64,000 nucleotides of DNA from Acidobacteriota bacterium (GTDB taxonomy: Bacteria > Acidobacteriota > UBA6911 > RPQK01 > G965248645), in assembly GCA_965248645.1 (NCBI GenBank), contig OZ252113.1, positions 1,782,590 to 1,846,589 on the forward strand. The letters run 5' to 3'. The notes below the pieces were generated by a model. The model had not been told where the DNA came from. It made no database searches and saw only the letters and a program-made list of their open reading frames with translations. The translations under genes were made by a program, and so were the position numbers. This document shows, in pieces, positions 6,482-59,036 of the stretch. The stretch's first letter is position 1; every line of letters begins with the position of its first letter.

Positions 6482-6586
6482 TTTGCGGATTTCACCTTCC
6501 AAGTAGCCAGTTTGGACAGTCGCCACTGGGAGATTGCGAAGGTCGGATGGTATCGCCGTAAACTCTTTCTGCGGCTGATATGAGGG

Positions 6587-33265: not shown

Positions 33266-35959
33266 TTGAAGGGTACCCTCACTAACAATGGCCACTTACG
33301 AGCTTCCAGACTCCAGGTTATCACCATCGGAAAAAAGATGAGCTATCCTTCATTTCGTTGTAGTGCTCTGGGTATGTTGGGACTAATCCTCACCTCCAAT
33401 GTGGCAGCTACCACTACTGAAGATGCCATTGTGCAAACAGCCCAGGGGGTTTTGAAGAAGCACTGCCTGAGTTGCCATGGTGCCATGGGTCAGTCCGACC
33501 TAGATTTGCGCAGTCGGGAAAGTACACTGAGGGGTGGTAAGCGTGGTCCGGCAATGGTACCTAGCAAGCCCGAAGAAAGCCTCCTTTTTTTAGCCGCTTC
33601 CCATAGAGGAGAGTTGAAGATGCCGCTGGGGAGTGCTATGACCATCCCGGAAGAGGAACTAGCGGTTCTGAAAGATTGGATAGAACAGGGAGCCCCCTGG
33701 ACCGAAGAGTCTTCGGTCGTGCTCAATGGAACCCCATGGTGGTCGTTTGAAAAACTCCGGCGGCCACCGATTCCAACACTGGACGATGGCGCTGATTTCT
33801 ACAATCCAATTGACGCATTCGTGGTGGCCAAGCTAGAAGAAAAAGGTCTGAGGGCAGCTCCTCGAGCGGGAAAGCGAACGCTAATTCGGAGAGCCTATTT
33901 CGATCTTTTGGGTCTGCCGCCCACCCCCGAACAAGTTGAGCGATTCCTCAAGGACACCTCTCCAGACGCCTATACGAATCTCATCGAGCGGCTTCTCGCC
34001 TCTCCCCGCTATGGGGAACGCTGGGGCCGACACTGGTTGGACGTGGTCCGGTACGCCGATAGTGCTGGGTTCGAAGGGGACATCTATTATCCAAATGCCT
34101 GGCGCTACCGTGACTACGTGATCAAGTCCTTCAACGAAGATAAGCCTTACGATCGGTTTGTTCAGGAGCAAATCGCTGGGGATGAGCTCTGGCCGAATAA
34201 TCTGGAACTGGAAGGGTTCTACGATATGTCTCCGGAAAAGCTTGAGCACCTGGAAGCCAGAGTAGGAACCGGTCTCTATACATTCGGCCCTGAAATTCAG
34301 GAGTCCCATCTCGATGGAACCCGATTACGGTATGAGCGGCAAACGGATTGGGTAAACATTACGGGAGCTGCTTTTTTGGGTCTCACTCTTGAATGTTCCC
34401 GTTGTCACGATCACAAATTCGATCCCATTCCCCAGAGGGATTACTTCCGACTTCAGGCTATCTTTGCCGCCAGCTCACCGGTGACAATTGCAGTGGTGTC
34501 ATCCATGTCGGTGGGTCATCGGGATGAATACTACCACCGGATGCTGGCCCTGGACGAGGTGCGGGATGCCTACCTCGCTTTTGAAAAAATGGTCAAGGAC
34601 CGGGTGATCGATTCCAAAAAGAAGGACTACCGGTCTGAGGTAGTTCGTTCCTACGAAGTTCCGGCGGAAAAGCGCACCATCGAGGAGGCCGAACTAGCAG
34701 AACCCTTGGTCAAACTCTACCAAGGAATCAACATTGAAAAGTTTCTTGCTGAAGAAGAAGTCGAGCGTCAGAAGGAACTGAGCCGCCAACTGGTGAAGAT
34801 AGTAACGAGTGTTCGGGGTGAGGATCCGTCTCATAACGTTCACTTTGACGGGTTTTATGATGTGCCCTCGGCCACGGTTCTGGGCCATATTGAACCGGAA
34901 TTGATTTCCGACGTCTTCGTGCTCGACCGGGGGGAGTTGGAGAGGAGAAGAGAGAGGGTTAGCGCAGGTTTTCCAGTCGCGTTGCGCGACGAGACCACAC
35001 CGGATGACTTACCAGTGGATGCGATGGGACCTCGATACCGAAGGCAGTTGGCCCTATGGCTGACTCGGCCACACCATCCACTGACAGCTCGAGTCATTGT
35101 CAACCGAATTTGGCAAGGGCACTTCGGACGGGGGATCGTAGGAACCACCAATGATTTTGGACGTCAGGGGCAGCCCCCCACCCATGTGGGGTTAATCGAC
35201 TGGCTCGCCTCTGAATTTGTCAACTCCGGCTGGAGCATCAAATCTCTACACCACTTGATCATGCACTCGGAGGCTTATCGGCGGTCCAGCCGATTTACGA
35301 GTCCAAAACACAGGTATGTGGATCCGGATAACCGTTATCTTTGGCGAATGAACCGGCGGCGATTGGAAGGAGAGACGATTTGGGATTCGATCCACTTTGT
35401 GGCGGGAACTCTTAACCTGCGCATGGGTGGACGCCCTTCAATTCCTCCCCTCTCGGAGACTGAACTGGCTCCCTTGCGTATCAAGGCCTGGTGGGTCACT
35501 CCAGCTGATCCGGCGGAAGGAAGGAGGCGGGGTGTCTACATCATGGTGAGACGTAACTTCACCTTTCCCATGTTCGATAAGTTTGACATCCCCAATCCGT
35601 CGGTGAGTTGTCCTCGGCGAGAGGTTACCACGGTAGCACCCCAGGCTCTGTGGGGGCTCAACAGCACGGTTACTTTCCAGCAGGCGAAGCAATTAGCTAC
35701 TCGTCTAGTCGGTCAAGAGGGAGATAATCCCTCGCGATGGATCGAATCGGCTTGGCGCTTGGCTCTGGCTCGTCCCCCCTCCGCCAAAGAGAAGCAAGAG
35801 GCGCGAACTTTGCTGGCTACCCTGGCCTCAAAAAACCGAGATAACGTTATTGAGCCTTTGCCAGATACAATGCTTCGGCTTGAGCCTGGACGCGCTGCTG
35901 CACTGATCCAGCTCTGCTTAACTATCTTTAATCTTAACGAGTTCATGTATGTTGACTAG
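33266..35959 (+). CDS. PSD1-type protein (PSCyt haem-binding domain + DUF1549 + DUF1553)
   Basis: An N-terminal CLSCHG motif is present. The architecture is conserved in Planctomycetota/Verrucomicrobiota, with the C-terminal block LCLTIFNLNEFMYVD. The real start is probably at MSYPSF (33335), which has a signal peptide. Confidence 0.85.
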   Translation: MKGTLTNNGHLRASRLQVITIGKKMSYPSFRCSALGMLGLILTSNVAATTTEDAIVQTAQGVLKKHCLSCHGAMGQSDLDLRSRESTLRGGKRGPAMVPSKPEESLLFLAASHRGELKMPLGSAMTIPEEELAVLKDWIEQGAPWTEESSVVLNGTPWWSFEKLRRPPIPTLDDGADFYNPIDAFVVAKLEEKGLRAAPRAGKRTLIRRAYFDLLGLPPTPEQVERFLKDTSPDAYTNLIERLLASPRYGERWGRHWLDVVRYADSAGFEGDIYYPNAWRYRDYVIKSFNEDKPYDRFVQEQIAGDELWPNNLELEGFYDMSPEKLEHLEARVGTGLYTFGPEIQESHLDGTRLRYERQTDWVNITGAAFLGLTLECSRCHDHKFDPIPQRDYFRLQAIFAASSPVTIAVVSSMSVGHRDEYYHRMLALDEVRDAYLAFEKMVKDRVIDSKKKDYRSEVVRSYEVPAEKRTIEEAELAEPLVKLYQGINIEKFLAEEEVERQKELSRQLVKIVTSVRGEDPSHNVHFDGFYDVPSATVLGHIEPELISDVFVLDRGELERRRERVSAGFPVALRDETTPDDLPVDAMGPRYRRQLALWLTRPHHPLTARVIVNRIWQGHFGRGIVGTTNDFGRQGQPPTHVGLIDWLASEFVNSGWSIKSLHHLIMHSEAYRRSSRFTSPKHRYVDPDNRYLWRMNRRRLEGETIWDSIHFVAGTLNLRMGGRPSIPPLSETELAPLRIKAWWVTPADPAEGRRRGVYIMVRRNFTFPMFDKFDIPNPSVSCPRREVTTVAPQALWGLNSTVTFQQAKQLATRLVGQEGDNPSRWIESAWRLALARPPSAKEKQEARTLLATLASKNRDNVIEPLPDTMLRLEPGRAAALIQLCLTIFNLNEFMYVD

Positions 35960-36016: not shown

Positions 36017-37498
36017 GTGTATAATTCCCCTGGGAGAAATCCTATGAACCAATATTCCTGCCATCTTCAGGCTACGGTCCGCTCGCGACGTCAGTTTCTG
36101 GCCCAGTCCGGGCTGGGTTTTGGTTCCTTAGCACTCGGTTATTTGTTGAATCGAGACGCGATAGCTACGACTAAGAAGATCTCTATGAGAGTCAATCCAT
36201 TGGCTCTCAAGGGACCCCATTTTCCTGCCTCGGCTAACAGTGTTATCTTCGTCTTTTTGCAGGGCGGCCCTAGCCAAGTCGACACCTTTGATCCTAAACC
36301 AGAACTCAATCGGCTCGATGGTCAACCCCTTCCGCCCAGTTTTCTGAAAGGAGGCTTGCCATTGGCGCAGGTGAAGGCCGAAGAGTGCAAACTGATGGGG
36401 ACCCGGCGTAGATTCAGTCGGTGGGGGGAGTCAGGGTTGGAGATAGCCGATATTTTCGAAAATCTAGCGCAGTTCGCAGATGATCTAGCCATTATTCGCT
36501 CTTGCTATCACGAGTCTTTCATTCACGGCCCCGCTATCAACCTGGTTCACACTGGATCAACCTTACTCGGGAATCCCAGCATGGGATCCTGGGTCCTTTA
36601 CGGGTTGGGAAGTGAGACCGATAGTCTGCCCTCGTATGTTGTCATGGCAGACGATTACATGCGCAACGGAAAATCAGTAGTGGGGTCTGGTTTTCTGCCC
36701 GCAGTCTACCAGGGAACCGTTTTTTCCACCCGGGGAGCCCCCCTAGAAAATCTCTCACCCCTTGCACAGGTCGGAGTCGAACGTCAGCGCATCATGCTGG
36801 ATCAGCTGCAGGCGTGGAATCAACGGCATCTCGACGAGCGTCGTGATGATTCCAATCTTGCAGCGCGGATTAGCAGTTACGAGCTCGCGTTTCGGATGCA
36901 AGCGGAAGGTCCCGAACTGATCGATCTGAGCGCAGAACCAGAGCCCGTTCGGAGAATGTACGGCATGGATGTAGAACCGACCGCTAACTTTGGTCGAATA
37001 TGCCTGTTGGCTCGGCGCATGGTGGAGCGTGGAGTGCGTTTTGTTCATCTCTACAACAGCGATTGGGACGGCCACGGTGAATGCGACAAGAACCACAGGG
37101 AAAACGCTTTGAAGACCGATCTACCCTTAGCCGGCCTCTTGGGTGACCTGAAACAACGTGGCTTGTTGGAAACTACTCTGGTCGTTTGTACTGGGGAGTT
37201 CGGGCGCACACCCATTATGCAAGGAAAGGAAGGAAGAGATCACAACCCCTATGGATTCACTACTTGGATGGCAGGAGGGGGCATTAAAGGAGGCCAGGCC
37301 ATCGGCTCTACTGACGAGATTGGATTCCGAGCGGTGGAAGACAAAGTGCACGTGCACGATCTCCACGCCACCATGCTGGAACTTCTCGGACTGGATGACA
37401 AGAAGCTTCACTTCCTGGTGTCCGGCCTTGAGAAAAGACTTACCGGGGTCGGGGACGAGGGTAGTAAAGGAATCGCCAAACGGCTGGTGGCCGGTTAG
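36017..37498 (+). CDS. DUF1501 (sulfatase-like) protein with twin-arginine signal, canonical partner of PSD1
   Basis: A TAT-like N-terminus (SRRQFLAQSGLGFGSLALG) is followed by a DUF1501 core. The gene lies immediately downstream of the PSD1 gene. Confidence 0.85.
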   Translation: MYNSPGRNPMNQYSCHLQATVRSRRQFLAQSGLGFGSLALGYLLNRDAIATTKKISMRVNPLALKGPHFPASANSVIFVFLQGGPSQVDTFDPKPELNRLDGQPLPPSFLKGGLPLAQVKAEECKLMGTRRRFSRWGESGLEIADIFENLAQFADDLAIIRSCYHESFIHGPAINLVHTGSTLLGNPSMGSWVLYGLGSETDSLPSYVVMADDYMRNGKSVVGSGFLPAVYQGTVFSTRGAPLENLSPLAQVGVERQRIMLDQLQAWNQRHLDERRDDSNLAARISSYELAFRMQAEGPELIDLSAEPEPVRRMYGMDVEPTANFGRICLLARRMVERGVRFVHLYNSDWDGHGECDKNHRENALKTDLPLAGLLGDLKQRGLLETTLVVCTGEFGRTPIMQGKEGRDHNPYGFTTWMAGGGIKGGQAIGSTDEIGFRAVEDKVHVHDLHATMLELLGLDDKKLHFLVSGLEKRLTGVGDEGSKGIAKRLVAG

Positions 37499-42762: not shown

Positions 42763-43449
42763 AATCTACCTCGCTCTGTTTGATGGTCTGCCTTCATCTG
42801 CCAGGCTCGAGAAGAGATCGTAACTCATCGCAGTTCTCGGGCAGGCTAAAACAATGCCCCTTATAGGCAATGTAGTTGAGGTCGACGAGCTCCGCTTCGC
42901 TCAGCAGGTCAATATAGCTGATAATCGTCATGTAAAGTTCGGATCTGATTTCCTGTGACCTCCTGTGATGAATGAACGAAATCTATCATCCCTACTGACC
43001 TTGTGTCCAAGATTTTCTTGTGATCTTTTAGGTGAAAAAGCCTCTGAATCGCTGGATTATCTAGGCGCTTTTCCGAAAACTGATCGGCAGAGCGACTCTC
43101 TGAGGGAACTGGGTAAGAAACACTTGTTTTTGGGCTGTTACAGTCCTGTCTTCTAACTGTCGCAGAATCAGCTATTTCGGCAAGGCCATTCAGGAGGGTT
43201 TTGGACAAACTATAATAAGACCGTCTGTATCGTTCCCTAACCGAAGCGTCGATATTGCTATACACTCTGAGTGCACGTTCAAGAAGATTCAGATCAATCG
43301 CGCCATTTCTTGGCCTGATTTTGTTGCTAAAGGTGCTTGCCAGCAGGCCCCCAGGATAGCTTGATGTACTCCTTGTTAGAAATAGAAAGATGAGGTACTT
43401 TGGGGTATAATAAAAAAATCTTCGAACCTTCAATAGGGGAAGCATAGTC

Positions 43450-46329
43450 ATGAAAGGACGCTTCGCTTTTTTCTTCAGCTTGGGTGTGCTTGCCACAGGG
43501 CTTTCAGGGAAAACATCAGCAGAAAACACGAGTTCTTCATTACCCACATTCGAAAAAGAGATTCTGCCCATCTTCGAGAAGAGCTGTCTGGCCTGTCACA
43601 GTGCCCAGAGTCCTCAGAGCGGCCTGGTTCTGGAGACGGTAGAGTCTCTCTTCCAAGGGGGAACAGTCAGTGGACCGGCAGTAATCGCTGGAGAGAGCAG
43701 CCGGAGTCCGCTGCTGCTCTATCTGAAGGGAGAGAAAGAGCCCAGAATGCCGCTGGACGCTCCTCTGCCGGAAGCGGAGATCACCCTGATTGCCCGCTGG
43801 ATAGACCAGCTCAAACCGGCTGGTCAGAAGGAAGTTGAGACCCAACTGGCTGGTGGAATAACCTCTGATCAAGACTTTGAAGAGTCAATCCGGCCCATCC
43901 TAGAGAAAAATTGCTTTTCTTGCCACAACGCCGAGACTCACCGCAGCGGTTTGGTACTCGAGACGGTCGAGTCGCTGCTTAAGGGAGGCGGTGCCGATGG
44001 TCCAGCTATTGTGGCGGGGAAAAGTAGGGAGAGTCCCCTGATTCTTCATCTGCGGGGAGACAAAGCCCCGCGCATGCCGCTGGAAGGCGTTCCTTTGGCC
44101 GAGGAGAAAATCACCCGGATTGCCAGCTGGATCGACGGTCTGGAGGTCTCGACCATAGCCCAGGTCAAGCCGAAACTGGACTGGCCCTGGATCAAACTCG
44201 AGCGTCCGGATGTTCCGCAGGTCCAACACCAGGAATGGGTAACGAATCCCATCGACGCTTTTATTTTAGCCAAGCTGGAAACCAAGAGCCTAGAGCCGGC
44301 ACCAGCGGTCTCCAAACGGGCTTTGCTGCGCCGCATCTCCTTCGATCTGACGGGTCTACCGCCTACACCGGAGGAGATGCAGCGATTCCTGCAGGATTCC
44401 TCGCCGGATGCTTATGAGCGGCAGATCGACCGGCTACTGGCCAGCCCTCACTACGGAGAACGCTGGGCACGGCACTGGTTAGATTTAGTGCGTTATGCCG
44501 ACACTAAGGGAGGATATTACGATCCGATCTACCCTCATATCTGGCGCTACCGGGACTACGTCATCCGGGCCTTCAATCAGGGTCGACCCTACGACCGCTT
44601 CATCCGGGAACAAATCGCAGGGGACAGCTTCCGCCCCTATGGCGCGGAAGGGAGAATTGCCTTGGGCTTCATGCGCGTGGGAGCACAAACTGAATCGGGA
44701 GGTCGCCGGGAGATCTTGGATGACCTGGTGGGCACCACCGGATCGGTGTTCCTGGGGATGACTGTGGCCTGTGCCCGCTGTCACGATCACAAGTTTGATC
44801 CCATTCCCCAGCGAGACTACTACCGGATGGAGGCCTTCTTTACCCCGATGAGCATTACGGGGCCGACCGCCCTACCCTTCACCGAATACGAGCTGCCCCA
44901 TCAAGAGCCAGAGAAATGGGAGAAAAAGGCCGAAGCCTGGCAAGCACTCTATTCAAAGTATTATGCGAGAGCAAAAGCGATTGTAGCTCAGTTCAAGGAA
45001 CGGGTGAGAAGAGAACGCTCCTTCCTATCCCCTGAGGACCTTAAGGACCGGGTGGTCTACGGAGACGTTTACGCCTCCTACCGAGTCAGCGCTTTCGAAT
45101 TACGCGAAGCCATGCAGAAGGGCCTGCTGTTTAGTAAGGCGGAACGGGATCTGTACAATCTCGCCCGCCGTTGTGTCTCCCAGGGTAGCCCCATGCATCC
45201 CGATCTATATGAGCCCAAGGCCTACTCGGCTTCCGACCCAGGAGGCAAGGATCTTCCCTCCACTCCTGACACCTACGTCCTGAAGGTGGGAAATCCAAAG
45301 GCTAGAGGAGAGGCTGTGGGACCAGGTTTTTTGAGTTCTGCGATCGGGAATTCCGACCCGGTCGACCTGACGGGAGGCGGTAGCCACCGCAAGTTGCTGG
45401 CCGAGTGGATCTCCAGTCCCGAGAATCCTCTAACGGCTCGGGTGATGGTCAACCGGATCTGGCAGCATCATTTTGGCGAAGGGTTGGTGCGCACGCCCAG
45501 CGACTTTGGCCAGAACGGTTCGGGAACCCTGCATCGGGAATTGATCGACTGGCTAGCCTCGGAGTTCATCGAGCAGGGGTGGAACATCCAGGCCATGCAC
45601 CGGCTCATACTCGGCTCCAGTCTCTATCGCCAATCGATGTACCACCCTCGGGACCAGGAGTTTGAAACGATCGACAGTGCCAATCGCTATCTTTGGAAGA
45701 TGGGGCCGATTCGTCTCGAGGCGGAGAGCATTCGCGACAGTATCCTAGCGGTTAGCGGAGAGCTGAATCGGGATATGGGTGGCCCTGCGGTTTTTCCCGT
45801 CATCGATGATGAACTACAGAAGCGAGCGCTCACTATCTGGGAAGCCTCTCCCCAGCAGGAAAGGAACCGTAGAAGCATTTACATGATGCAGAAGCGAGCC
45901 ACCCCGACCCCTTGGATGGCGGTCTTTGATGGCCCTAATCTGAACCAGAGCTGCGAGGTACGCGGGGTCACCACGGTGACGCCGCAGGTCTTTGCCTTGT
46001 TCAACAGTGAGTTCGTCCACCGGCAGAGCCGCCAGATGGCCGCTCGCATCCGTCGCCAAGTGGGAGCGGATCCTGAAAGACAGATCGAGCGGGCCTTTGA
46101 ACTGGCCCTTCAGCGTTTGCCCACCCAGGGAGAAAAAGAGGAGTTTCGAGCGCGGTTGGGAACCTCTGCAGCGGTGCCCCGACCAGACATGGCCTTCTTG
46201 GGCAAGCCGGAAGGTGCACCTATGCCCATCTCCCTAACGATAGCAGGAGACCAACCCGGGAGTCCGGGATCGCTGGCTGATCTATGCCTGGTTTTGTTTA
46301 ACGTCAACGAATTCATTTTCCTAGAATAG
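43450..46329 (+). CDS. PSD1-type protein number 2 (two PSCyt CxxCH-like domains + DUF1549 + DUF1553) without an adjacent DUF1501 partner
   Basis: The motifs CLACHS and CFSCHN occur in duplicated N-terminal modules. The C-terminal conserved block is LCLVLFNVNEFIFLE. The length is 959 aa. Confidence 0.85.
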   Translation: MKGRFAFFFSLGVLATGLSGKTSAENTSSSLPTFEKEILPIFEKSCLACHSAQSPQSGLVLETVESLFQGGTVSGPAVIAGESSRSPLLLYLKGEKEPRMPLDAPLPEAEITLIARWIDQLKPAGQKEVETQLAGGITSDQDFEESIRPILEKNCFSCHNAETHRSGLVLETVESLLKGGGADGPAIVAGKSRESPLILHLRGDKAPRMPLEGVPLAEEKITRIASWIDGLEVSTIAQVKPKLDWPWIKLERPDVPQVQHQEWVTNPIDAFILAKLETKSLEPAPAVSKRALLRRISFDLTGLPPTPEEMQRFLQDSSPDAYERQIDRLLASPHYGERWARHWLDLVRYADTKGGYYDPIYPHIWRYRDYVIRAFNQGRPYDRFIREQIAGDSFRPYGAEGRIALGFMRVGAQTESGGRREILDDLVGTTGSVFLGMTVACARCHDHKFDPIPQRDYYRMEAFFTPMSITGPTALPFTEYELPHQEPEKWEKKAEAWQALYSKYYARAKAIVAQFKERVRRERSFLSPEDLKDRVVYGDVYASYRVSAFELREAMQKGLLFSKAERDLYNLARRCVSQGSPMHPDLYEPKAYSASDPGGKDLPSTPDTYVLKVGNPKARGEAVGPGFLSSAIGNSDPVDLTGGGSHRKLLAEWISSPENPLTARVMVNRIWQHHFGEGLVRTPSDFGQNGSGTLHRELIDWLASEFIEQGWNIQAMHRLILGSSLYRQSMYHPRDQEFETIDSANRYLWKMGPIRLEAESIRDSILAVSGELNRDMGGPAVFPVIDDELQKRALTIWEASPQQERNRRSIYMMQKRATPTPWMAVFDGPNLNQSCEVRGVTTVTPQVFALFNSEFVHRQSRQMAARIRRQVGADPERQIERAFELALQRLPTQGEKEEFRARLGTSAAVPRPDMAFLGKPEGAPMPISLTIAGDQPGSPGSLADLCLVLFNVNEFIFLE

Positions 46330-46485
46330 GACAGTTTACTCAAGGAGACAGCCTCATGAGAAAGAACCCCTTTGATGTCATGCTGATAAGTTCGACCAGA
46401 CTTCCCCGTTTCAGAGTGACGGCGTGGAGCGACCTCAAGCATTGGTGTTCCGTAGTATGGATATAATAATACATACTACGAACAT

Positions 46486-46743
46486 TTGTATTTGTTTTAC
46501 TGTGCTCAGCTAATGCGCTTTCTCAAGAATTATTACTTTTTGGTGGGGAAGGTCGTGATGAATTTCTCGGTTGCCTCAATTGACCAACATATAGTTCAGA
46601 TTCTATCTGCAATAAACAGGGAACTTATGGAAACAAGTACAATATTAAAAGTATTTTTAGCGGATACGGAATTTACGGAATCGACGATAATAAGAAAAGT
46701 CCATGGAATCAATACTCTTCTGACAAGGAAGTTCCCGTGTTAA
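46486..46743 (+). CDS. hypothetical small protein in an AT-rich island (first of two overlapping ORFs)
   Basis: The ORF has about 33% GC against a background of about 56%. It ends with TAATG, overlapping the start of the next ORF. Confidence 0.3.
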   Translation: MYLFYCAQLMRFLKNYYFLVGKVVMNFSVASIDQHIVQILSAINRELMETSTILKVFLADTEFTESTIIRKVHGINTLLTRKFPC

Positions 46744-46892
46744 TGGATAGAGAAGGAAAGTTTTACGGATACTTTACAATAAACGATTATAGAAAGGACT
46801 CAATTAGTTTTTCCAGGAAGCTTAAAGAGATTTATAAACATTCAGCTGGAGACCTTGAATTGGTGAGAGAAGCACTTTGCAGTTCTTTTTAA
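46743..46892 (+). CDS. hypothetical 49-aa protein overlapping the previous ORF by ATG/TAA (TAATG)
   Basis: My translation is MDREGKFYGYFTINDYRKDSISFSRKLKEIYKHSAGDLELVREALCSSF. It is AT-rich and too short for the ORF track. Confidence 0.25.
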   Translation: MDREGKFYGYFTINDYRKDSISFSRKLKEIYKHSAGDLELVREALCSSF

Positions 46893-47417
46893 AAAACCCT
46901 TTCTACAGCATAGCCTACTTTACTATAGCAATAACCCACCATAGTTAAAAGTCTTGAGGCTCGGGCAATTTGTGGTAGTCTCAAGTGCAGTGTCTAGGGT
47001 ATTGGCTCGGACAATGTGCCTAAGGATAAGATGCTCTGGAAGTTCTGTAATTCTGTAATATGAAAAGAGCATCAAGCAACAAGACTTCATCAGTGAACAC
47101 GTCACAATAGAGGAAAGATCGGCGCGGGGGAGAGAGCGCGTCTGGAGAACCACGGCTTCCTCAGCCATGACAGGCACAGAATGTCCTTAAGCTAGAGTAG
47201 CAGCACGCGCAGCTGGTCGAAGGTCCTACACTTTCTGCAATGAGCCCAGAAGGGAGATCTGTTATGACTAAGTGTTGCACGGGCGAAAGGAAGATCCTTC
47301 CTAGGGGATAGGTGAGGTGAGCTTCACTTTGCCTGTATTTCTACCCAGTGCTAGTATTAATAATAATTGTAAAGCATGCTAAACGGCAGTACCTGATGTT
47401 AGCTGGAAGGTTCGCTA

Positions 47418-48596
47418 ATGAAGGACACCATCTGCGAGCTGCTCGCCTTTTATCTTACTCTGGTGATCTTTTGGTTTAGCGGTTGTTCACAAACTGCAGA
47501 GCTCGAGCAGAAGCAATCTAGTTACGAAGAAATACTTACGCGTGCCGAGCAAGGCGATGCCGAGGCCCAATGCAACCTGGGGAACATGTATCGCGATGGC
47601 AAAGGGGTTTCTCAAGACGATCAAGAAGCAGTCAAGTGGCACCGCAAGGCGAGCGGGGAAGGCTATGCCAAAGCTCAAAATAACCTGGGGAACATGTATC
47701 GCGATGGCAAAGGGGTTTCTCAGGACGACCAAGAAGCAGTCAAGTGGTACCGAAAGGCAGCTGAGCAAGGCTATGCCAAAGCTCAAAATAACCTGGGGAA
47801 CATGTACCGGGAGGGCTACGGTGTTCCTCAAGATGGCCAAGAGGCAGTCAACTGGTACCGCTATGCTGCCGAACAAGGTTATGTCGACGCCCAATATAAT
47901 CTGGGGCTTATGTACTACTACGAACGAGAGGGAGTCAGCCAGGACTACCAAAAAGCACTCAAGTGGTATCGAAAGGCCGTCGAGCAGGGAGATGCCGCCG
48001 CGGAATATGCTCTGGGGGTCATGTATGCCGAGGGCCAAGGCGTTGCTCAGGACTACCAAGAAGTAGCTAAGTGGTATCGCAAGGCCGCGAATCGAGGTCA
48101 TGCAACTGCCCAATATAATCTGGGGGTCATGTATGCCGAGGGCCAAGGCGTTGCCCAGGACTACCAAGAGGCCGTTAAGTGGTACCATTACGCTGCCGAG
48201 CAAGGCGATGCCAAGGCCCAATATGCTCTAGGGGTCATGTACGCCAAGAAGGCAGCTGAGCAAGGCGATGCTAAGGCCCAAAATAACCTGGGGAACATGT
48301 ACCTCGATGGTCACGGCATCCCTCAGGATGGTCAAGAAGCAGTGAAGTGGTACCGCAAGGCCGCCGAGCAAGGTGATCCCGATGCCCAGAGGCATCTGGG
48401 GGTCATGTATGCCATGGGCCAAGGTGTCCCACAGGACGACATACAGGCTCACATGTGGTGCAACCTAGCAGCTACCAACTTAACTGGAGAGGCAAGAGAA
48501 AAGGCCGTTGCATTACGAGACTTTCGAGCTGAACAGATGACTCGGGATCAGATCGTTGAGGCTGAGCGGCTAGCCCGGGAGTGGAAACCAAAATAA
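47418..48596 (+). CDS. Sel1-like repeat (SLR/TPR-like) protein, about 9 tandem 36-aa repeats
   Basis: The unit AQNNLGNMYRDGKGVSQDDQEAVKWYRKAAEQGYAK recurs. The N-terminus is hydrophobic. Confidence 0.8.
   Translation: MKDTICELLAFYLTLVIFWFSGCSQTAELEQKQSSYEEILTRAEQGDAEAQCNLGNMYRDGKGVSQDDQEAVKWHRKASGEGYAKAQNNLGNMYRDGKGVSQDDQEAVKWYRKAAEQGYAKAQNNLGNMYREGYGVPQDGQEAVNWYRYAAEQGYVDAQYNLGLMYYYEREGVSQDYQKALKWYRKAVEQGDAAAEYALGVMYAEGQGVAQDYQEVAKWYRKAANRGHATAQYNLGVMYAEGQGVAQDYQEAVKWYHYAAEQGDAKAQYALGVMYAKKAAEQGDAKAQNNLGNMYLDGHGIPQDGQEAVKWYRKAAEQGDPDAQRHLGVMYAMGQGVPQDDIQAHMWCNLAATNLTGEAREKAVALRDFRAEQMTRDQIVEAERLAREWKPK
47574..48480 (+). repeat. tandem 108-bp coding repeats (Sel1 units); the first two units (47574-47789) are nearly identical at the DNA level
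   Basis: Direct inspection shows a period of 108 bp, starting with AACCTGGGGAACATGTA. Confidence 0.7.
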
Positions 48597-48810: not shown

Positions 48811-49272
48811 TCATGGAACTTGTGCCGCGTCTGTTCCCGGGTCGAAGCCGGGTTCGAGCGCGTCGCGGAGACGCTTTACGATGTCCTCTCCACCTTGAGA
48901 TCGGTCACCTTGAGATCGGTCACCTTGAGATCGGTCGAATCCCGACATGAGGTCACGGAACTTTTCACGCGCCTCTTCCTGGGTCATTTCGCCGGCTTCA
49001 ACCGCCTGGCGGAGACGCTCTCTGAAGGCTCTAACGAAAGCCAGTTCGTTCGTCTTGGCAACGTGCTTCTCGAGGGCGATCATCATGGTTCTGGCTTGCC
49101 CCAGAGTAAGCTCACCTGCCTCGACGCCTGCACTGAGTCGCATGCGAACTGCCATGTAGTCGGGGTCTTGAGCATCGGCCAGACCCGGAGGCAGAAGAGT
49201 CATGGCGCATAGCAGAGTGGATATAGCTAGCCACCGCGAGGTGTTGGGGATGGGTTTCGTTGATACGATCAT
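48811..49272 (-). CDS. hypothetical secreted protein with DRSQG x3 tandem motif
   Basis: A signal peptide is present (..LLCAMTLLPPGLADA). A 15-bp tandem repeat TCGGTCACCTTGAGA lies at about 48886-48940. Confidence 0.5.
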   Translation of the reverse strand: MIVSTKPIPNTSRWLAISTLLCAMTLLPPGLADAQDPDYMAVRMRLSAGVEAGELTLGQARTMMIALEKHVAKTNELAFVRAFRERLRQAVEAGEMTQEEAREKFRDLMSGFDRSQGDRSQGDRSQGGEDIVKRLRDALEPGFDPGTDAAQVP

Positions 49273-49735: not shown

Positions 49736-50554
49736 TCATGTCGAGTGTGGCAGTCCCTCATTGAGTCCAACGAGAAGAGGTTTTCTTTTAGGAGGGGCGT
49801 TTTCCACGAGTCTCTGTGGCCACTCGGGGATCAGACCGACTGGTTTGGCCCACCCAGGACGATAGGAGTAGAAGAGGGCTCGGCGGATCTGATCAGTGAA
49901 GTTCAGGCCGCCCGCATGCACAGTGGAACAGTGAAACAGCACTGCTGTGCCTGCCTTTGCCAGGACGATCTTTGCTTTTTCCTCTAAATACTCGAAATTG
50001 CTGCCAGGGATCAGATGACACTGTCTGTGGCTACGGGGAACGACCCACAGTGGACCGTTTTCAAAAGTTAGATCGCAAAGATAGAAGCCAACGTTTACCC
50101 AGGAAGCAGAAGTATTCCTGAAGTCATCTTCGTATTCAGCGCCCCCGTAATCCATGTGAAGCATCTGGCGAGGTTTTTCCGCGATCTCTTTCCTTGGTTT
50201 GGGATAATAAACACCTTTGAAAAACCTGATGTCGTCACCATAGCAGAGACGAATCATTTGCAGAACTTTTGGATTTTCGATGAGTTTCGCTACGGATGGA
50301 GTCACCCAGGAGTGAGAGCTTTTTTCTAGGATAGTCCTTGTTTCCTTTGGCCCAAGCTCAATATCTCGGTCGAGAGTGGTGCGATCGAACTCGCGATTTA
50401 GCTTCACCAGGACCTCTTCATCGATAGCTCCGGGTACGATCAAAAAGCCATTGATCTCAAAGTAGACTCGTCGTTCCGTAAGGGGCATCGACAAGAACTT
50501 GTCTTTGATCACTCGTGCTTCCAGCTCTTCTTTCAAATGGCCGATATTTCTCAT
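49736..50554 (-). CDS. phytanoyl-CoA dioxygenase (PhyH) family protein
   Basis: The HxD..H context (HMDYGG ... HCSTVHAGGLN) matches the family, and the protein resembles the other two PhyH-like genes in the window. Confidence 0.75.
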   Translation of the reverse strand: MRNIGHLKEELEARVIKDKFLSMPLTERRVYFEINGFLIVPGAIDEEVLVKLNREFDRTTLDRDIELGPKETRTILEKSSHSWVTPSVAKLIENPKVLQMIRLCYGDDIRFFKGVYYPKPRKEIAEKPRQMLHMDYGGAEYEDDFRNTSASWVNVGFYLCDLTFENGPLWVVPRSHRQCHLIPGSNFEYLEEKAKIVLAKAGTAVLFHCSTVHAGGLNFTDQIRRALFYSYRPGWAKPVGLIPEWPQRLVENAPPKRKPLLVGLNEGLPHST

Positions 50555-51168: not shown

Positions 51169-52388
51169 ATGAAGCGCACAGCGGACGTGGTCATTGTTGG
51201 TGGAGGGGTCACCGGGCTGAGTACGGCCTGGAATCTGAAGGAGAACGGGGTTGACCGCGTTGTTGTGCTCGAGCGGCACCGGATCGGTTCCGGCCAGTCG
51301 GGTCGTGCGGCTGGCATTGTCCGTACACTTGTACCTCACCCCTTGGTAGCGTCTTGGCAGTATCAGTCACAACAATTCTTCAATACGTTCGTGGAACGGA
51401 CTGGACTTTCGATCGAGGTCAATCAGGTTGGCTACGTTCTCATCGCAGGTTGTGCCGAGGCAAAAGGGCTGGGGCAAGCGGTTGAAGTGAGCCGGCAGCT
51501 GGGCACCAATTGTGATCACATTAGCGTGGATGAAGCTGGCCAAGTACAACCGGGTATCCAGCAGGGCGCCGAGCTGGCATATGCGTTTGAACCAGGGGCG
51601 ATTTATGTAGACCCGATGCCAGCCACTCATGCCATAGCGCTGGCAGCACGGCGGGCTGGCGTAGAGATTCGGGAGGGGTGTGGCGTACAAAAGTGCTGCT
51701 GGACAGATCCCAGGTCGCAGGTGTTTCCACTCGTGAAGGCCCTTGGTTTGCACCCGCGGTAATGATTGCAACTGCCGCCTGGAGCCGAAGCCAACTGCAG
51801 CAGGTGGGACTCAAGTTACCTGTCTATCCGCATCGAGCAGAGATGGCCTTTTTCCATGTTCCGCTGGAGAAAGAGTTGCGTCTGATCCGTATTCTCTCTG
51901 ACACAAGATCACAACTTTACTTGCGTCCGGAGGGGCGACTGCAGATGTTTGTCGGTTGGCGGGAAGGAGACCTGGTCCGGCAGCCGGAAGACTGTGTGCC
52001 CGAAAATCCGGACGATTATCGGGAGACCGTCCATTTTGATCGGCTCGTTCAGATGCATAATCGACTATCCCAGACATTGCCTTTCATGGCGCGAGGATTC
52101 GCCAATCGCAGCTATGCGTGTGTGTACGACTACACCCCGGACGGGCAGCCGATCCTTGATGCCGCAGGGTCTACAGGGTTGTATTCCGCAATTGGTTTCA
52201 GCGGTGGAGGTTTCTCTACCGCTCCCTGCGTCGGTAGGACCATGGCAAAATTTATCGCGAGTGGGAAAAAACCACAAGAGATCGAGTGGCTGCGACTCAG
52301 TCGCTTCGCTGAGGGAGACCTAATTCACTGGAACAACCTGGGCCTTCTTCAAAATACAACCAATGGGGTATCCACTGGACTCAGGTAA
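51169..52388 (+). pseudogene. FAD-dependent oxidoreductase (DAO family, glycine/sarcosine oxidase-like) with a frameshift near 51700-51760; the 3-prime end abuts IS1595 copy 2
   Basis: The N-terminal FAD motif is VVIVGGGVTGLSTAW. Two overlapping ORFs in different frames together cover about 394 aa. The C-terminal codons run into the IS terminal repeat. Confidence 0.7.
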
Positions 52389-53390
52389 CCACAACATCTT
52401 GTGGTTGGGCTCACGGGGCCTCGGCGTCCCAGTCGGCGACGATCGATCGATACGGCGTTGGGTCCACGGCGACTGCCTGCTGCACAAGGCGGTAGAAGAG
52501 TTTTCCCCGGCTGCGTGAGTTGCGCCGGTTGAAGCGGAACACAAACTCGTCGAGGTAGTAGTCCAGATGCTCGTGGCTAACCGCGCCTTGGTGCGTGCCC
52601 AGCAGCCAGCGCTTGAGCAACGAGATCGCTTGGTGCACCCTCGGCAATAATTCCGAGGCCTGCTTGCGGCGGCCCGACAGAAAGACGATGCGATGCTGGT
52701 AGCCCTTCTTCTCCAGCGGCTCGTAGCCCAGCCAGCCGTCGGTGTGCACCAAGCTTCCCGGCTCGACCGACTCCTCCACGAAGGGCATCAAACTGGTCGC
52801 CGATGCGTTCCGCAAGCGCTGCATGCGGATCCGTCCTAGCCCGCGGCCTCTCTCTTCCGCGGATACTTAAATCAATTCTTTACGCTCGGTCTGCCGGCCG
52901 CTCACACCCTCTTCCTCAGCGCCCCAATAGGTCTCATCGACCTCGACTACGCCCGCCAATCGCTCCCGCCCCGGACGCACCATCGCTCGCCGCAGCTTGT
53001 GCATCCAGGTCCACGCAGTTCGATAGCTGCCCAACCCGAGAACGCGCTGCAGACCCAGCGCGCTGACCCCGTTCTTTTGCGAAGTGACGTGCCAGATCGC
53101 CCGGAACCACAGCCGCAGCGGCTTACGTGTGTCTTGGAAGATCGTGCCCGAGGTCACCGACGTCTGCCGCCCGCAGCGAGCGCATTCGAACCACACTTTG
53201 CGCATCGGCCAAGCCCACTCATACCCGCATCCCGGACAGCGGAAACCCTCCGGCCAGCGCAACGCGGACAGATAGTCGCGACAGGCCTCTTCGCTGGCGA
53301 AGCGTACCTAGAACTCGAGCAGGTCGCGTGGATAATCCTCCACGAAGGCACATACTACATCTTGGGGTCACCTGAGTCAAGTGGATACCA
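52353..53390 (-). mobile_element. IS1595-family insertion sequence, copy 2; no flanking direct repeat detectable
   Basis: The copy is about 99% identical to copy 1, with about a 10-bp indel. The left flank is AAAATACAACCA and the right flank is GTTATCCGATCA. Confidence 0.75.
52411..53262 (-). pseudogene. IS1595-family transposase, copy 2 (shared in-frame TAA plus an extra nonsense change removing the N-terminus)
   Basis: The ORFs 52867..53262 and 52411..52824 are the same as in copy 1. Copy 2 reads GAA where copy 1 has its first TAA, but carries CTA/TAG at about 53308. Confidence 0.7.
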
Positions 53391-54940
53391 GTTATCCGAT
53401 CATTTACAATTGGGACGGTGCACCCCACGGCTATTCCCAGTACCCGCAGTCCCTCGATCAGTTTCTTGAAAAGACTTTTGCTCCCATTAAAAACACTCAG
53501 GTAAAAGCCTTGTTCTGGTGCATCGGTGAGCATGAAGCAACCTGGAACTCCAAAGACTTACCCATGGCTGGGGATAGTGAGAATCGAATCTACGCTTCCC
53601 TACGTTCCATGACTCACAATGAGAATATCCGCTCCCTGCTGGAACGAGGAGAAAATCCTTACCAGGCCATGGTTCAACGAGGGCATGAGCTGGGGATCGA
53701 TGTGTATGTGTCCATCCGAATGAATGACAATCACTTGCATGGGATCCAATTGGAAGATATGGCCAAGACCGAGATGTGGGGTCTGACCGAACTTCGCAAG
53801 CAGCACCCCGAATGGTGCCTCGGTGCCGAGAACACTCCCAAGTGGTTTGCTGCTTCTTGGAACATGGCTATTCCGGAAGTACGCCAGCACCGATTCCAGT
53901 ACATTCGGGAAGCAGTGGCCGCAGCTGACTGGGACGGTGTTGAACTGGACTGGCAACGCCATGGGTTTCATTTACCCGCCGATCACGCCTATCGATTGCG
54001 TTACACCCTGACGGATCTGCAGCGGGCCATTCGCCACGAGACTCAGGCGATTGCCGACAAACGAGAGAAGCCGTTTTGGGTGGCAGTGCGCGTGAGTACG
54101 ACCCAGGAGTCTTGTCGGAGAATCGGCTACGATCTGGAAACCTGGATTCAGGAGGGGCTGTGCGACATCCTGACGGCCGGGGGAGGCTCAGGCACCGACG
54201 CTGGTATCGAGGTAGAAGGCTTTCGACAAATGGTTGACGGAACCCCCATCCGCTTCCATACCGGTTTCGACAGTCGCTTCGCAGGCCCCTACCAAGGACT
54301 GGAAGAGGAAAAAGCATCGCTCCACTCCTGGTTTCGTGGATTGGCCGCAGGCTACTGGGAGCGCGGGGCCCACGGTATGTACGTTTTCAACTGGCATGCC
54401 AACGAGCGGACCCGGCGAGACCTACTAACCTCTATCGGTGCCGTCGAGACATTGAAGAGAACGAACAAGCTGTACTCTGCGCTTTACCGTTTTGACCGGG
54501 CCAAGGAGGGCCCCTGGGTAGGCTCCGACTTGAATGATCGAATCCACGCAGAAACCCCGGTTTCCCTCTATCGGACACTTACCGATGAAGGACCAAAATT
54601 TCACGTCCCGACCTATGACGAAGTCGTCGAAGAGGCGAGGGCAGGACAGTTGAAGAAAGTCGAACTGCGGATTGAGCTGAAACAATTTTCGCCGACCGAT
54701 CGAGTGCGAGTACAACTGGACGGAAAAGAGTTGACCAGTCCCCAGGTACGGAATGTCTCTGCGGAAAATCCGGATGACCCTTCGGATGTGAGCGAAAGCA
54801 GTTGGCTGGTCTGGTCACTTCGACCGGAGGAGGCCGACCGAGGAATGCACGAAGTAAAAGTCCAATTAATCAAGCGCAACCCAAGGATCAAACCGCCCCT
54901 AGTAATAGAGCATGTGGAAATCCAGGTGCATTATGCTTAA
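53381..54940 (+). CDS. GHL-like TIM-barrel hydrolase paralog, 5-prime end replaced by the IS1595 terminus (signal peptide region missing)
   Basis: The protein aligns to 59861..61534 from about residue 38 of that paralog (PIICFYHDGRHP.. vs YPIIYNWDGAPHG..). The annotated ATG lies inside the IS terminal repeat. The motifs are QRGHELG and WDGVELDW. Confidence 0.6.
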   Translation: MDTSYPIIYNWDGAPHGYSQYPQSLDQFLEKTFAPIKNTQVKALFWCIGEHEATWNSKDLPMAGDSENRIYASLRSMTHNENIRSLLERGENPYQAMVQRGHELGIDVYVSIRMNDNHLHGIQLEDMAKTEMWGLTELRKQHPEWCLGAENTPKWFAASWNMAIPEVRQHRFQYIREAVAAADWDGVELDWQRHGFHLPADHAYRLRYTLTDLQRAIRHETQAIADKREKPFWVAVRVSTTQESCRRIGYDLETWIQEGLCDILTAGGGSGTDAGIEVEGFRQMVDGTPIRFHTGFDSRFAGPYQGLEEEKASLHSWFRGLAAGYWERGAHGMYVFNWHANERTRRDLLTSIGAVETLKRTNKLYSALYRFDRAKEGPWVGSDLNDRIHAETPVSLYRTLTDEGPKFHVPTYDEVVEEARAGQLKKVELRIELKQFSPTDRVRVQLDGKELTSPQVRNVSAENPDDPSDVSESSWLVWSLRPEEADRGMHEVKVQLIKRNPRIKPPLVIEHVEIQVHYA

Positions 54941-55094: not shown

Positions 55095-55895
55095 ATGCCT
55101 ATTTACTTCAAGAAAAGCGACTGGGTTGCTGTACGGCGTTGTTCGGAAAAGGATGGCGTGGCGATCGTTCCTCTAGGCTCGTCGGAGCAACATGGGCCAC
55201 ATCTGCCCTGTGGGGTCGACTCGATCCAGATTGACGAGGTCATGGTACGCATGGGTGCTAGGCTGGACCCAGCGCTCCCGGTCTGTATTTGCCCCACTGT
55301 GGACTACAGTGTTGTCCAGTGGGCTTCACCTTTGGCATCCGCGGGTGTCGCTCCCACGACCATGGAACAAAGTCTGGTGGATATCTGTCATGCCCTCACG
55401 GACCTGGGCTTCTGGAAGATCGTGCTAGTGCATGGGCACGGTGGGCTTCCCACGGGACGCTCGGCGCTGTGGCAGGCGGTTCACGAAAAGCGCCCTGCCC
55501 TGTACGTTGACTTCATGCCTTTTGAGCGCTGCGAGGCTCAGATCGCTAAGATTATCGGCGGGCCCAGTGGTCACGGAGGAGCAGCAGAAACCAGCATGAT
55601 GCTGGCCATCCGTCCCGATCTAGTAGACATTAGTGAAGCCCGTTCGGCCCCCCTTAATCTGTGGGGGGATAACTTTCCATTTCCGTCCCTTGAACGGGTC
55701 GGAAGCTACGCTATCCCGCCCGTCGAGGCCGTAGCTGACGGGTTTTATGGGAGCGAGGTGAAACTCGCTAGTGCTGACAAAGGACATAAGATTCTGGAGG
55801 TCGTAGCCGAGTCGGTCGCAGAGATAGTGCACGAGTTGTCAAGTACTTCCACCCCTGCCGAGTACAAGCATATCTGGCGGAAACCTTTTCCTTAG
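55095..55895 (+). CDS. creatininase (creatinine amidohydrolase) family protein
   Basis: The motif ..VPLGSSEQHGPHLPCGVDSI..LVHGHGG.. matches the creatininase metal-site pattern. Confidence 0.8.
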   Translation: MPIYFKKSDWVAVRRCSEKDGVAIVPLGSSEQHGPHLPCGVDSIQIDEVMVRMGARLDPALPVCICPTVDYSVVQWASPLASAGVAPTTMEQSLVDICHALTDLGFWKIVLVHGHGGLPTGRSALWQAVHEKRPALYVDFMPFERCEAQIAKIIGGPSGHGGAAETSMMLAIRPDLVDISEARSAPLNLWGDNFPFPSLERVGSYAIPPVEAVADGFYGSEVKLASADKGHKILEVVAESVAEIVHELSSTSTPAEYKHIWRKPFP

Positions 55896-56317: not shown

Positions 56318-57193
56318 TCACTCTGTCGCCAGGTTGGCGTTCTCGGAGGCAAGTTCCAGGAGGCAGTTTTCACCCAGTGGCTCGATCGGTGTAAAGTCAC
56401 GATGGGCGATCCATTCCGGTCGCTTAAACTGTCGGATGTGGTTGTCCACGTGACAAAGGCTCAGATACACGATCACGCGGTCCCACGGACTGATGTTGGG
56501 CGCTGATGCGTGCACCATGTTCGAGTGAAACAATAGGACAGCTCCCGGTTTTCCCTTGGGCGCGACTATGCCGCCCTGGTTCGCCAGACGGCTTACCGAT
56601 TCCTTATTGAGTGTCCAAAGCGGATAAGACGTCGTTAGTGTATCGTGGCCCGCCTCGATCACACCCTGCTTGTGGCTGCGTGGGATAAGGTAGAGGGGAC
56701 CGTTGAATTCAGTCACCTCGTCCAGAAACAGCGCGATGTTCATCGCTAGCGGTTTCGGCATCTGATCGTCGCGCGCCCAGGTACCGTAGTCCTGGTGCCA
56801 CTGCCAGACATCACCGCTGAAGGCGGCCTTCCCGTTGATCTTGTACTGGTGTATATATACCGACCCGTTGAGGATTTGCATGATGGGTTTGATTAGGTGC
56901 GGATGGCGCCCCAGGCGGCCGAACGCCTTGTTATAGGTATGTGCAGCGAAGGCCGTGCGAACTGCTTCCCCGTCGTTTTCACGCCAGACCTCGTCACGAT
57001 GCATAGCGAAAATCTTCGGTAATTGGCCCTTGAGGACTTGGATCTCGTCCTGGCCGAACAGATCCGGTAGAAACAGCCAGCCTTCGGTGTCAAACTGCTC
57101 CAGCTGTGCCTTTCTCAGTTTCATGAAACGGTACTTATTTGTTGCCACCCTCTGATTATAAGGGAGCGGCGCTACAATTGTGACTGATCTCAC
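56318..57193 (-). CDS. phytanoyl-CoA dioxygenase (PhyH) family protein
   Basis: The motif is WHQDYGTW .. HSNMVHASAPN. Confidence 0.75.
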   Translation of the reverse strand: MRSVTIVAPLPYNQRVATNKYRFMKLRKAQLEQFDTEGWLFLPDLFGQDEIQVLKGQLPKIFAMHRDEVWRENDGEAVRTAFAAHTYNKAFGRLGRHPHLIKPIMQILNGSVYIHQYKINGKAAFSGDVWQWHQDYGTWARDDQMPKPLAMNIALFLDEVTEFNGPLYLIPRSHKQGVIEAGHDTLTTSYPLWTLNKESVSRLANQGGIVAPKGKPGAVLLFHSNMVHASAPNISPWDRVIVYLSLCHVDNHIRQFKRPEWIAHRDFTPIEPLGENCLLELASENANLATE

Positions 57194-57708
57194 CCAACTG
57201 TTCGCTCCCCATTAGGATACTGCGTTCGCGCTACTTCCAACTCTCCCCTGTGGACGTTTCCTGGTCGCAGTGTGCAACTTCGTAATCTGCGAACTTGTTG
57301 AAACAAAAAGGGGATGGTAGTAACTGTATCCGAAATAGCCGTTATACACAGCGGTTTCTTGGACAAACGGAGCGAAGGCCTTAATGCGAATACTCGATGA
57401 TCATTGGTGTACGCATACTTAACTGGGCCTCGATCTCTTCGCTAAGCCTCGGCAACCCTTTTCTGGGAGATCGATGAAGGCGCCAACAGCGTGGTTGACT
57501 TTGGACGGGAGGATTCGGACAAAGACGAATTCCTAAAGATTCCTGGTTGGAGCCGTACCGTGTCGAATCCAGCGAATCTCACTGATCATGTACTCACACT
57601 CTCCGGCCTTAACTCCAGCACCAGTTACCAGTACCAAGTGGCTTCAACCGATTCGCAGGGAAATGGCCACTCTACCCGTGGGAAGTGTCGTCCCCTAGCT
57701 ACCAGATA

Positions 57709-59036
57709 ATGAAGAAGGCAATTTTTGTCAATCCAAGTTGGGATCGATACGTTAGCCGGCGTGGCACACGGTATAACCGTCATTGGCCTCCTCTAGACCT
57801 CTTAAACTGTGCCGCGATACTGGAGGAGCATGGCTTTCGATGCGTGGTTTATAACCAGCGGATCGAGGACCAATGTGAGGTCCAGGTGGAGGACGAGGAC
57901 ATTGTGTTCGTCACCTCCTCTACACTGGATCGCTGGCAATGTCCGAACCTGGACCTGGAACTATTTGCGCATCGCATCACGCCCTTTCCGGAGGATCGCA
58001 CATATGTTCTTGGAGCACATGGGACCATGGATCCGACTTATGTAGCTAAAACACTTGGTAAGGCTGGGTTAATCCGTGAAGAGCCTGAAATGGCTGTGCT
58101 TCAGATCGCCCTGGGAGAGGATAAACAGGCCATCTCCGGCTTAACCTATCTCGACAAAGGTCAAGTGGTTTCCAATCCTGTTAAGACTCCCCTGCCTCTG
58201 GACCAGTTGGCCGCTCCCGCCTACCATCAAATCGATATCAGCCGCTACGGTTATGAACTTCTTGGAAGTGACTTCGCACTGTTGGAGACTTCGCGGGGCT
58301 GTCCTCATTCATGTAGCTATTGTTACCTGCAGGTATGTCCAAATACCGCTTGAAGTCTCCGCAGCGTGTCGTTGAAGAGGTTCGCACACTGCTCTCGACC
58401 ACACCCACGTGCAATATCTATTTCATCGACCTTGAATTCGCCATTCATCATCGTCACTGTGAAGCAGTGCTGGATGCTCTGCTAGCTTCGGGGTTGAAAT
58501 CCCACTGGTGCTGCCAAACTCGGGCTGACTCGGTGAATTTGGACCTACTACGAAAAATGAAGCGAGCTGGCTGCCGGCTTGTGCACTATGGTGTTGAGAC
58601 TGGCTCGGAGCGGGTTCTGGGGATGGTGAACAAGTATCTTGAGCTGGAGCAAATTCATCGAGCAATTCACCTCACCCGAAAGGCTGGCTTGAACTCGGCC
58701 TGCTTTTTCATGCTGGGCTTTCTGACGGAAACTGAGGCGGAAATCCGCCAGACTATACGCTTTTCCATAGAATTGAATCCCACGTACGCTTCTTTTCATT
58801 TGGCTACACCCTATCCGGGCACCAGTATGTACCGCAACTTTCAAGAGCAACGCGACAGTCAATTCATTCAGGAAACGTACCAACAGGCCCTACCTTTGCC
58901 TAAGTTGAAGGCGCTTCAGCGCAAAGTATATTTAGAATATTACTTACGACCTGCCTATCTCCTTTCGCGCTTTTGGACCAGTCCCTGGGAAAGCTGGCAA
59001 CAAGTTCGTCTGTTTCTGAATTTTGTTCTTAACTAG
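57709..59036 (+). pseudogene. B12-binding-domain radical SAM protein with a frameshift near 58320-58350
   Basis: The radical SAM triad SRGCPHSCSYCY is present. The downstream frame continues with ..KYRLKSPQRVVEEV.. and an Fe-S/radical SAM C-terminal region (..GVETGSERVL..). The N-terminal domain is of Rossmann/B12-binding type. Confidence 0.6.

Follow-up and report, generated by a model that had tools for sequence, protein, structure and literature searches.

Proteins that combine PSCyt and PSD1 domains are associated with DUF1501 proteins in Planctomycetota, Verrucomicrobiota and Acidobacteriota (Kamneva et al. 2012, PMC3542564). A stretch of 64,000 nucleotides from the genome of an Acidobacteriota bacterium (GenBank assembly GCA_965248645.1, contig OZ252113.1, positions 1,782,590 to 1,846,589 of the forward strand), to which we refer as the window, encodes two such proteins. 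PSD1 #1 and the DUF1501 gene that follows it form a typical pair, while PSD1 #2 has the typical PSCyt1, PSCyt2 and PSD1 architecture but lacks the partner that is present in 73% of its relatives. The interval next to PSD1 #2 (46330-47417) contains an AT-rich patch, which an earlier note on this DNA interpreted as a recently acquired island carrying two translationally coupled small genes, of the kind seen in toxin-antitoxin pairs. The analysis described here indicates that the AT-rich DNA is a single gene from a large family of small secreted proteins, which was very probably acquired horizontally and is now a pseudogene as a result of two point substitutions.

Several kinds of described systems are useful for comparison with this locus. 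Horizontally acquired islets that decay to pseudogenes share with it an anomalous composition limited to a single gene, absence from the nearest syntenic relative and inactivating point mutations in a frame that is otherwise intact. The locus differs from a classical genomic island, as the unit measures no more than about 0.5 kb and is found without an integrase, tRNA or flanking repeats. Its likeness to type II toxin-antitoxin operons is superficial and consists of the four-base stop/start overlap of two small open reading frames (ORFs) alone; here the ORFs are not independent genes, since one conserved frame covers both, and no toxin-antitoxin family is matched. Bacterial selenoproteins with CxxU or UxxC motifs (thioredoxin-fold and related proteins) have an in-frame TGA on a cysteine of a CxxC motif and cysteine-containing homologs, as does the gene in the window, but the window copy has no hairpin resembling a selenocysteine insertion sequence (SECIS) above background, no homologs with TGA and no start codon, and its structural context is extracellular.

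A single reading frame in the AT-rich patch

The GC content of the window is 52.7% (standard deviation 4.0) across its 64 kb, below the value of about 56% assumed for the genome in the earlier note. The interval 46330-47417 (1,088 bp) is fifth lowest in GC among 3,146 windows of the same length, although its overall value of 42.2% is well above the 30-35% originally ascribed to it. That description holds for the core, as strong AT-richness is confined to approximately 46450-46960 (35% GC) and coincides with a single gene at 46470-46892, which has a GC content of 35.0%. A 460-bp stretch beginning at 46461 is the minimum of the whole window (34.6% GC, about 4.5 standard deviations under the mean). 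The spacers on either side of the gene (47.1% GC upstream and 46.7% GC downstream) are ordinary when compared with intergenic DNA in the window, which has a mean GC content of 49.3% with a standard deviation of 3.7. Further low-GC patches were observed near positions 6500 and 16000.

The third forward frame from 46470 to 46892 is open except for one TGA, and reads YILRTFVFVLLCSANALSQELLLFGGEGRDEFLGCLN, stop, PTYSSDSICNKQG…PVLMDREGKFYGYFTIN…LVREALCSSF, stop. We used the translation of this frame, with the TGA replaced by Cys, as a query for homology search and obtained 97 homologs of 122-202 aa with E-values down to 8e-44, the best of which is 58% identical over 99% of the query; coverage reaches 100% among the matches. 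Apart from the internal stop codon, the start codon and three changes at conserved columns, all discussed below, the frame is undamaged and contains no frameshifts. The 85-aa ORF described in the earlier note lies out of frame inside this conserved sequence and has no match in Pfam (E<=1). Its companion of 49 aa, likewise unmatched in Pfam, which would be 51 aa long if counted from the GTG at 46737, starts at an ATG (46743-46745) that encodes an internal Met of the conserved PVL[V/M]DR motif, a position occupied by Val in the family. The TAATG at 46741-46745 joins two mechanical ORFs, and its TAA (46741-46743) belongs to a different frame from the conserved one. Coordinates of these and other features are collected in Table 1.

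Because one conserved frame with full-length homologs spans both ORFs, the interpretation of the patch as two genes fails; judged by the sequence, the AT-rich core is one gene and the TAATG overlap is coincidental. The two ORFs are present as such, yet they are not two genes, and the proposed toxin-antitoxin-like module is not upheld. Such a translationally coupled module finds some support in the stop-start overlap itself and in the HipBA pair located near the closest homolog, although there HipBA are separate genes. Against this, no family matches the 85-aa frame, which requires a TTG start and shows only faint similarity, in an alternate frame, at 5 of the 85 family loci (E 2e-5 to 5e-3), while the true frame is recovered in 85 of 85. 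The 49-aa ORF makes up residues 91-139 of the single protein, and neither Pfam nor PADLOC models, toxin-antitoxin models included, match the joined frame at E<=1. We therefore give the two-gene module practically no credence. It is nearly as implausible that the patch represents native regulatory or intergenic DNA, rich in AT, that serves the downstream Sel1 gene. The 525 bp at 46893-47417 are indeed non-coding, lie upstream of Sel1 and have a GC content typical for spacers, but coding sequence, with homologs at E = 8e-44, makes up the AT-rich core, matches to promoter and terminator motifs in 46893-47417 do not exceed the level of shuffled sequence, no RNA family is recognized, and nothing similar exists in the nearest relative with a comparable locus, L002.

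The family to which this gene belongs is large, with at least 3,658 cluster representatives (clustered at 50% identity). A profile built from 82 members retrieves this number at E<=1e-3 and 2,497 at E<=1e-10, and the family has no match among Pfam, NCBIfam, PHROG and PADLOC models or PDB sequences. The structure predicted with AlphaFold2 (AF2) has a high confidence score (pLDDT 91.7) and no detectable relative among solved structures. Examples of intact members are P0001 (GCA_013034485.1) and P0002 (GCA_020725025.1), both hypothetical secreted proteins of about 140 aa. P0001 is 58% identical to the joined frame over its full length, and has the same length, the same signal peptide and the same layout of conserved motifs (LLLFGG…FLGCLNC…SICN…SPWN…FYGYFTIN…C). 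In long members the domain is located C-terminally to PKD, Big_9, cadherin-like, NHL, DUF4214 or DUF5648 modules, or it follows a lipoprotein signal. Since these members fuse it to extracellular modules, the domain is likely extracellular, and its cysteines probably form structural disulfides.

Probable inactivating substitutions and foreign origin

The copy in the window differs from intact family members in lacking a start codon, in carrying TGA instead of a codon for the second Cys in the CxxC motif (GCLNC), and in three other changes at conserved columns. ATA stands at the site expected for the start codon, and no in-frame ATG, GTG or TTG occurs from the upstream TAA (46467) up to the mature protein. 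A Met at 46473 would give M-LRT-FVFVLLCSANA followed by LSQE, which is a typical signal peptide. Every family locus with a resolvable 5' end (70 of 70) has a canonical start codon, ATG in 63 cases and GTG or TTG in 7, together with a signal peptide. The second lesion coincides with a Cys that shows no variation in either of two alignments, one of 31 homologs and one of 82. We also examined the corresponding codon in 80 metagenomic loci, which were fetched by two search patterns, one of them independent of the Cys, and found TGC or TGT in 78, AGT in 2 and TGA in none. The window copy thus retains three of the four conserved cysteines. It deviates from the consensus at 4 of the 32 columns that are at least 85% conserved (H to R, C to stop, N to S and V to M), whereas intact members deviate on average at 1.17 +/- 1.19 of those columns and only 5 of 82 reach four; this places the copy in the top 6% in divergence from consensus.

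The composition of the gene sets it apart from its surroundings. Its GC content at third codon positions (GC3) is 0.291, compared with 0.578 +/- 0.048 in 34 other ORFs (z = -6.0), and its codon-usage score is approximately 4.9 standard deviations beneath the host mean. The Sel1 gene (GC3 0.57) and other neighbours have native-like composition. DNA similarity to family loci is limited to the coding sequence (46490-46828), with at most 76% identity. The syntenic site of L002 has no family gene, and no matches to the family were found in any of 80 PSD1 loci. Because both GC3 and codon usage deviate from those of the host, recent horizontal acquisition of the gene, as the earlier note had proposed, is supported by these sequence data; we infer the direction and timing of the transfer.

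Elsewhere the GC content of family genes tracks that of the host (27.7-58.7%), and some family loci fall far under the GC content of their flanks, for example 38% versus 66.6% at L120, a pattern that suggests repeated transfer. The locus of the closest homolog has a phage-type integrase and HipBA adjacent to the family gene; in another context a primase-like AAA_25 protein is adjacent and DUF3800 is close by, and in a further one DUF3800 and DUF2971 are adjacent. A DUF3800 gene just 3' of the family gene was observed in two of four homolog contexts (L162, 5559-6380; L163, 5888-6655) and may recur in others. No direct or inverted repeats of at least 7 nt were found at the borders of the AT-rich DNA, and no tRNA or tmRNA that could serve as an integration site was found across the 64 kb. 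The nearest transposase, an IS3-type orfB (HTH_21, rve, rve_3; 62582-63451, + strand), is about 15 kb away.

The frame is otherwise intact, and the two inactivating point changes in it, which are independent of each other, point to a recently inactivated pseudogene; we consider it very probable that the AT-rich gene was acquired horizontally and then inactivated in this way. The gene would have arrived from a donor of lower GC content, too recently for its composition to have drifted to that of the host. Its ancestral product would have been a protein of about 139 aa with a cleavable signal peptide (…FVFVLLCSANA, cleaved before LSQE) and an extracytoplasmic domain of about 120 aa with four conserved cysteines. 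Substitution of the initiator ATG by ATA at 46473-46475, and of the second Cys codon of GCLNC by TGA at 46581-46583, would mean that no protein bearing a signal peptide can be made and that the gene presumably has no function at present. Both short ORFs, of 85 aa and 49 aa, would then be by-products of the internal stop. In terms of its family, the window copy is a dead member and not a functional one.

Alternative explanations of the two lesions

A number of observations weigh against the interpretation of the gene as a recently acquired pseudogene. Its AT-richness is partly due to the protein it encodes, which is rich in N, K, S, Y and F, and no border repeats, tRNA or integrase are located beside it. 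The absence of the gene in relatives rests on a distant comparison, as the closest PSD1 proteins are only 53-58% identical. Both lesions are single-base substitutions, such as could be left by base-call error, and the TGA falls exactly on a cysteine of CxxC, the classic position of selenocysteine. The last two points correspond to two alternative explanations. The organism may possess an intact gene, with ATA and TGA being errors of assembly or base calling, an explanation that would agree with the undamaged state of the frame beyond the two lesions and the three changes at conserved columns. A nearby gene for a DAO (PF01266) FAD-dependent oxidoreductase, about 4.3 kb downstream, is split by a frameshift beside a run of four A, which could indicate an error-prone assembly. 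Its parts, 51169-51762 and 51678-52388 (+ strand), correspond to Pfam profile positions 1-175 and 179-352, with the switch of frame near 51682-51695 beside an 'acaaaag' run. The split can mean that this gene is a second pseudogene or that an indel arose in assembly, and so fits gene decay as well as imperfect assembly; with this gene frameshifted, broken genes are not unique to the site of the pseudogene. However, two independent substitutions within 110 bp, each at a critical codon, are improbable for a consensus assembly, and the three additional changes (H to R, N to S, V to M) at highly conserved columns fit relaxed constraint. We infer that the lesions are real mutations, and regard the error explanation as unlikely.

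The other explanation is that the TGA encodes selenocysteine, which would make the protein a new selenoprotein with CLNU, a CxxU variant of the CxxC motif of the family. The TGA is placed precisely on the conserved Cys, and there are many homologs with Cys; alignment of an in-frame TGA with Cys homologs serves as the homology criterion in selenoprotein discovery (PMC12013277). Yet the codon is TGA in none of the 80 metagenomic loci, every one of the 97 homologs has a protein call that continues past this position, and those in the alignment of 82 have Cys here. In the window TGA serves as a normal stop codon, ending 13 of 31 long ORFs, and the frame is missing a usable start codon. In the bSECISearch model a G is needed in the apical loop of the SECIS hairpin; the apical loop of the hairpin following the TGA is CAAUAAA, without G. 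This hairpin has a folding energy of -6.4 kcal/mol (z = 0.03), and 89 of 200 dinucleotide shuffles fold as well; as bacterial SECIS elements are heterogeneous, a poor hairpin is evidence rather than proof (PMC12013277). No Rfam match was found downstream of the TGA at E<=1. In long relatives the domain, which is extracellular, is joined to PKD/Ig modules, so that its cysteines are likelier to form structural disulfides than a redox centre. No tRNA was found in the 64-kb window, and selA, selB, selC and selD are not among the genes annotated there. Taken together, decoding of the TGA as selenocysteine appears very improbable, and the same low probability applies to the fuller proposal in which a selenocysteine-decoded TGA is combined with a non-canonical AUA start, giving the first selenoprotein of a large unannotated extracellular family.

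The PSD1 #2 locus and surrounding genes

Returning to the pseudogene and its position next to PSD1 #2, we compared the locus with those of PSD1 relatives. The closest relatives of PSD1 #2 come from metagenome-assembled genomes of Acidobacteriota, L002 (53-58% identity) and L003 (43%). Among the 70 relatives with enough downstream sequence, 51 (73%) have a DUF1501 gene on the same strand not more than 700 bp downstream, L002 and L003 included. On the left side, L002 is syntenic with the window, having a divergent GFO/IDH/MocA gene (72-75% amino acid identity) followed by PSD1, and there a DUF1501 gene overlaps the PSD1 stop codon. This comparison bears out the expectation that the PSD1-DUF1501 pair occurs without the AT-rich gene in relatives, and that the patch lies where DUF1501 would be expected. 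Since most PSD1 relatives, including the nearest ones, have DUF1501 downstream, the partner was probably lost in this lineage. Outside 36017-37498, a tblastn search of the window with its own DUF1501 protein gave E>0.8 at best, and no remnant was recognized. That the insertion displaced the partner is plausible, though displacement is not demonstrated, because the foreign DNA covers no more than about 0.5 kb and genes on its far side, Sel1 included, are native in composition; the partner may have been lost and the foreign gene gained independently of each other.

Table 1. Features of the PSD1 #2 locus and of the AT-rich patch, with positions counted in the window.
Feature	Position	Strand	Evidence or remarks
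PSD1 #1	33266-35959		Followed by DUF1501; typical pair
DUF1501	36017-37498		Partner of PSD1 #1
PSD1 #2 (PSCyt1 x2, PSCyt2, PSD1)	43450-46329	+	Pfam domains; intact, 959 aa, without DUF1501 partner
Spacer after PSD1 #2	46330-46469	+	GC 47.1%; 36-codon ORF (46356-46466) with AAGGAG upstream
Very probable pseudogene of small secreted protein (~139 codons), LLLFGG-GCLNC-SPWN-FYGYFT family	46470-46892	+	Single frame, homologs, GC/GC3
ATA at expected start codon	46473-46475	+	Signal peptide downstream, …ILRTFVFVLLCSANA, cleaved before LSQE
In-frame TGA for second Cys of GCLNC (CxxC)	46581-46583	+	Homolog alignments, metagenomic loci
85-aa ORF of earlier note	46486-46743	+	TTG start; out-of-frame artefact inside conserved frame
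49-aa ORF of earlier note	46743-46892	+	C-terminal third of pseudogene, residues 91-139
Non-coding spacer 5' of Sel1 gene, 525 bp	46893-47417	.	No recognisable element
Sel1-repeat protein, 392 aa	47418-48596	+	Eight repeats (PF08238, E 3.7e-89); N-terminal hydrophobic segment ending FSGC

The short ORF at 46356-46466, which has a Shine-Dalgarno sequence in front of it, was considered and rejected as the N-terminus of DUF1501, and its best score against 63 DUF1501 N-termini, 15.1 bits, equals the mean for shuffled sequence (15.1). Synteny with L002 would resume at 53381-54940 (+ strand), where a 519-aa protein is 23% identical (E 4e-19) to the product of the gene after DUF1501 in L002; this is probably a paralogue and was not used as evidence. 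Upstream of PSD1 #2, a 687-bp spacer (42763-43449, 45% GC) separates it from the divergent GFO/IDH/MocA gene and is much longer than that of L002. An ORF of 220 aa at 42909-43571 (- strand), without a Pfam match, overlaps the start of PSD1 #2.

The Sel1-repeat protein follows the AT-rich patch, as had been noticed before. The DNA between them, 46893-47417, is most simply regarded as the upstream spacer of the Sel1 gene, and no repeats of it are found elsewhere in the window. No Rfam family reaches its gathering score anywhere in the window, and none is found at E<=1 in 46250-47500. A resemblance to the P4 element of RNase P noticed by eye near 47110-47185 ('GAGGAAAG…ACAGAA') has no model support, and the segment is far too short. 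A fragment of a Sel1 gene is located directly upstream of a family member in one of 85 loci (L146; 2-355 and 932-1336), and this proximity is probably due to chance, so that a conserved link between the two was rejected.

Further downstream, the ORF at 48811-49272 (- strand) contains three copies of the 16-nt motif CACCTTGAGATCGGTC at 15-nt spacing (48891-48936), which encode GDRSQ three times in a 153-aa signal-peptide protein without a family match. Two PhyH dioxygenases (49736-50554 and 56318-57193, both - strand), a creatininase (55095-55895, + strand) and the 519-aa protein mentioned above may form a catabolic cluster. The segment 52389-53380, listed as intergenic, has a GC content of 62.7% and probably conceals a gene under the 180-aa listing threshold. 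The ORFs at 57685-58353 and 58320-59036 (+ strand) overlap, and the second matches Radical_SAM from profile position 24, so that they may represent a split gene.

The locus illustrates that an in-frame stop within AT-rich DNA can yield plausible overlapping mini-ORFs. The result is in this sense a correction, since the apparent coupled module is a broken single gene, which leaves no new toxin-antitoxin-like system for further study. The probable loss of DUF1501 in an Acidobacteriota-like genome bears on the question of whether the PSD1 component works alone. Finally, the family identified through this pseudogene is large and its members are secreted or surface-associated; neither Pfam nor NCBIfam has an entry for it, and its curation as a new domain family would be worthwhile.
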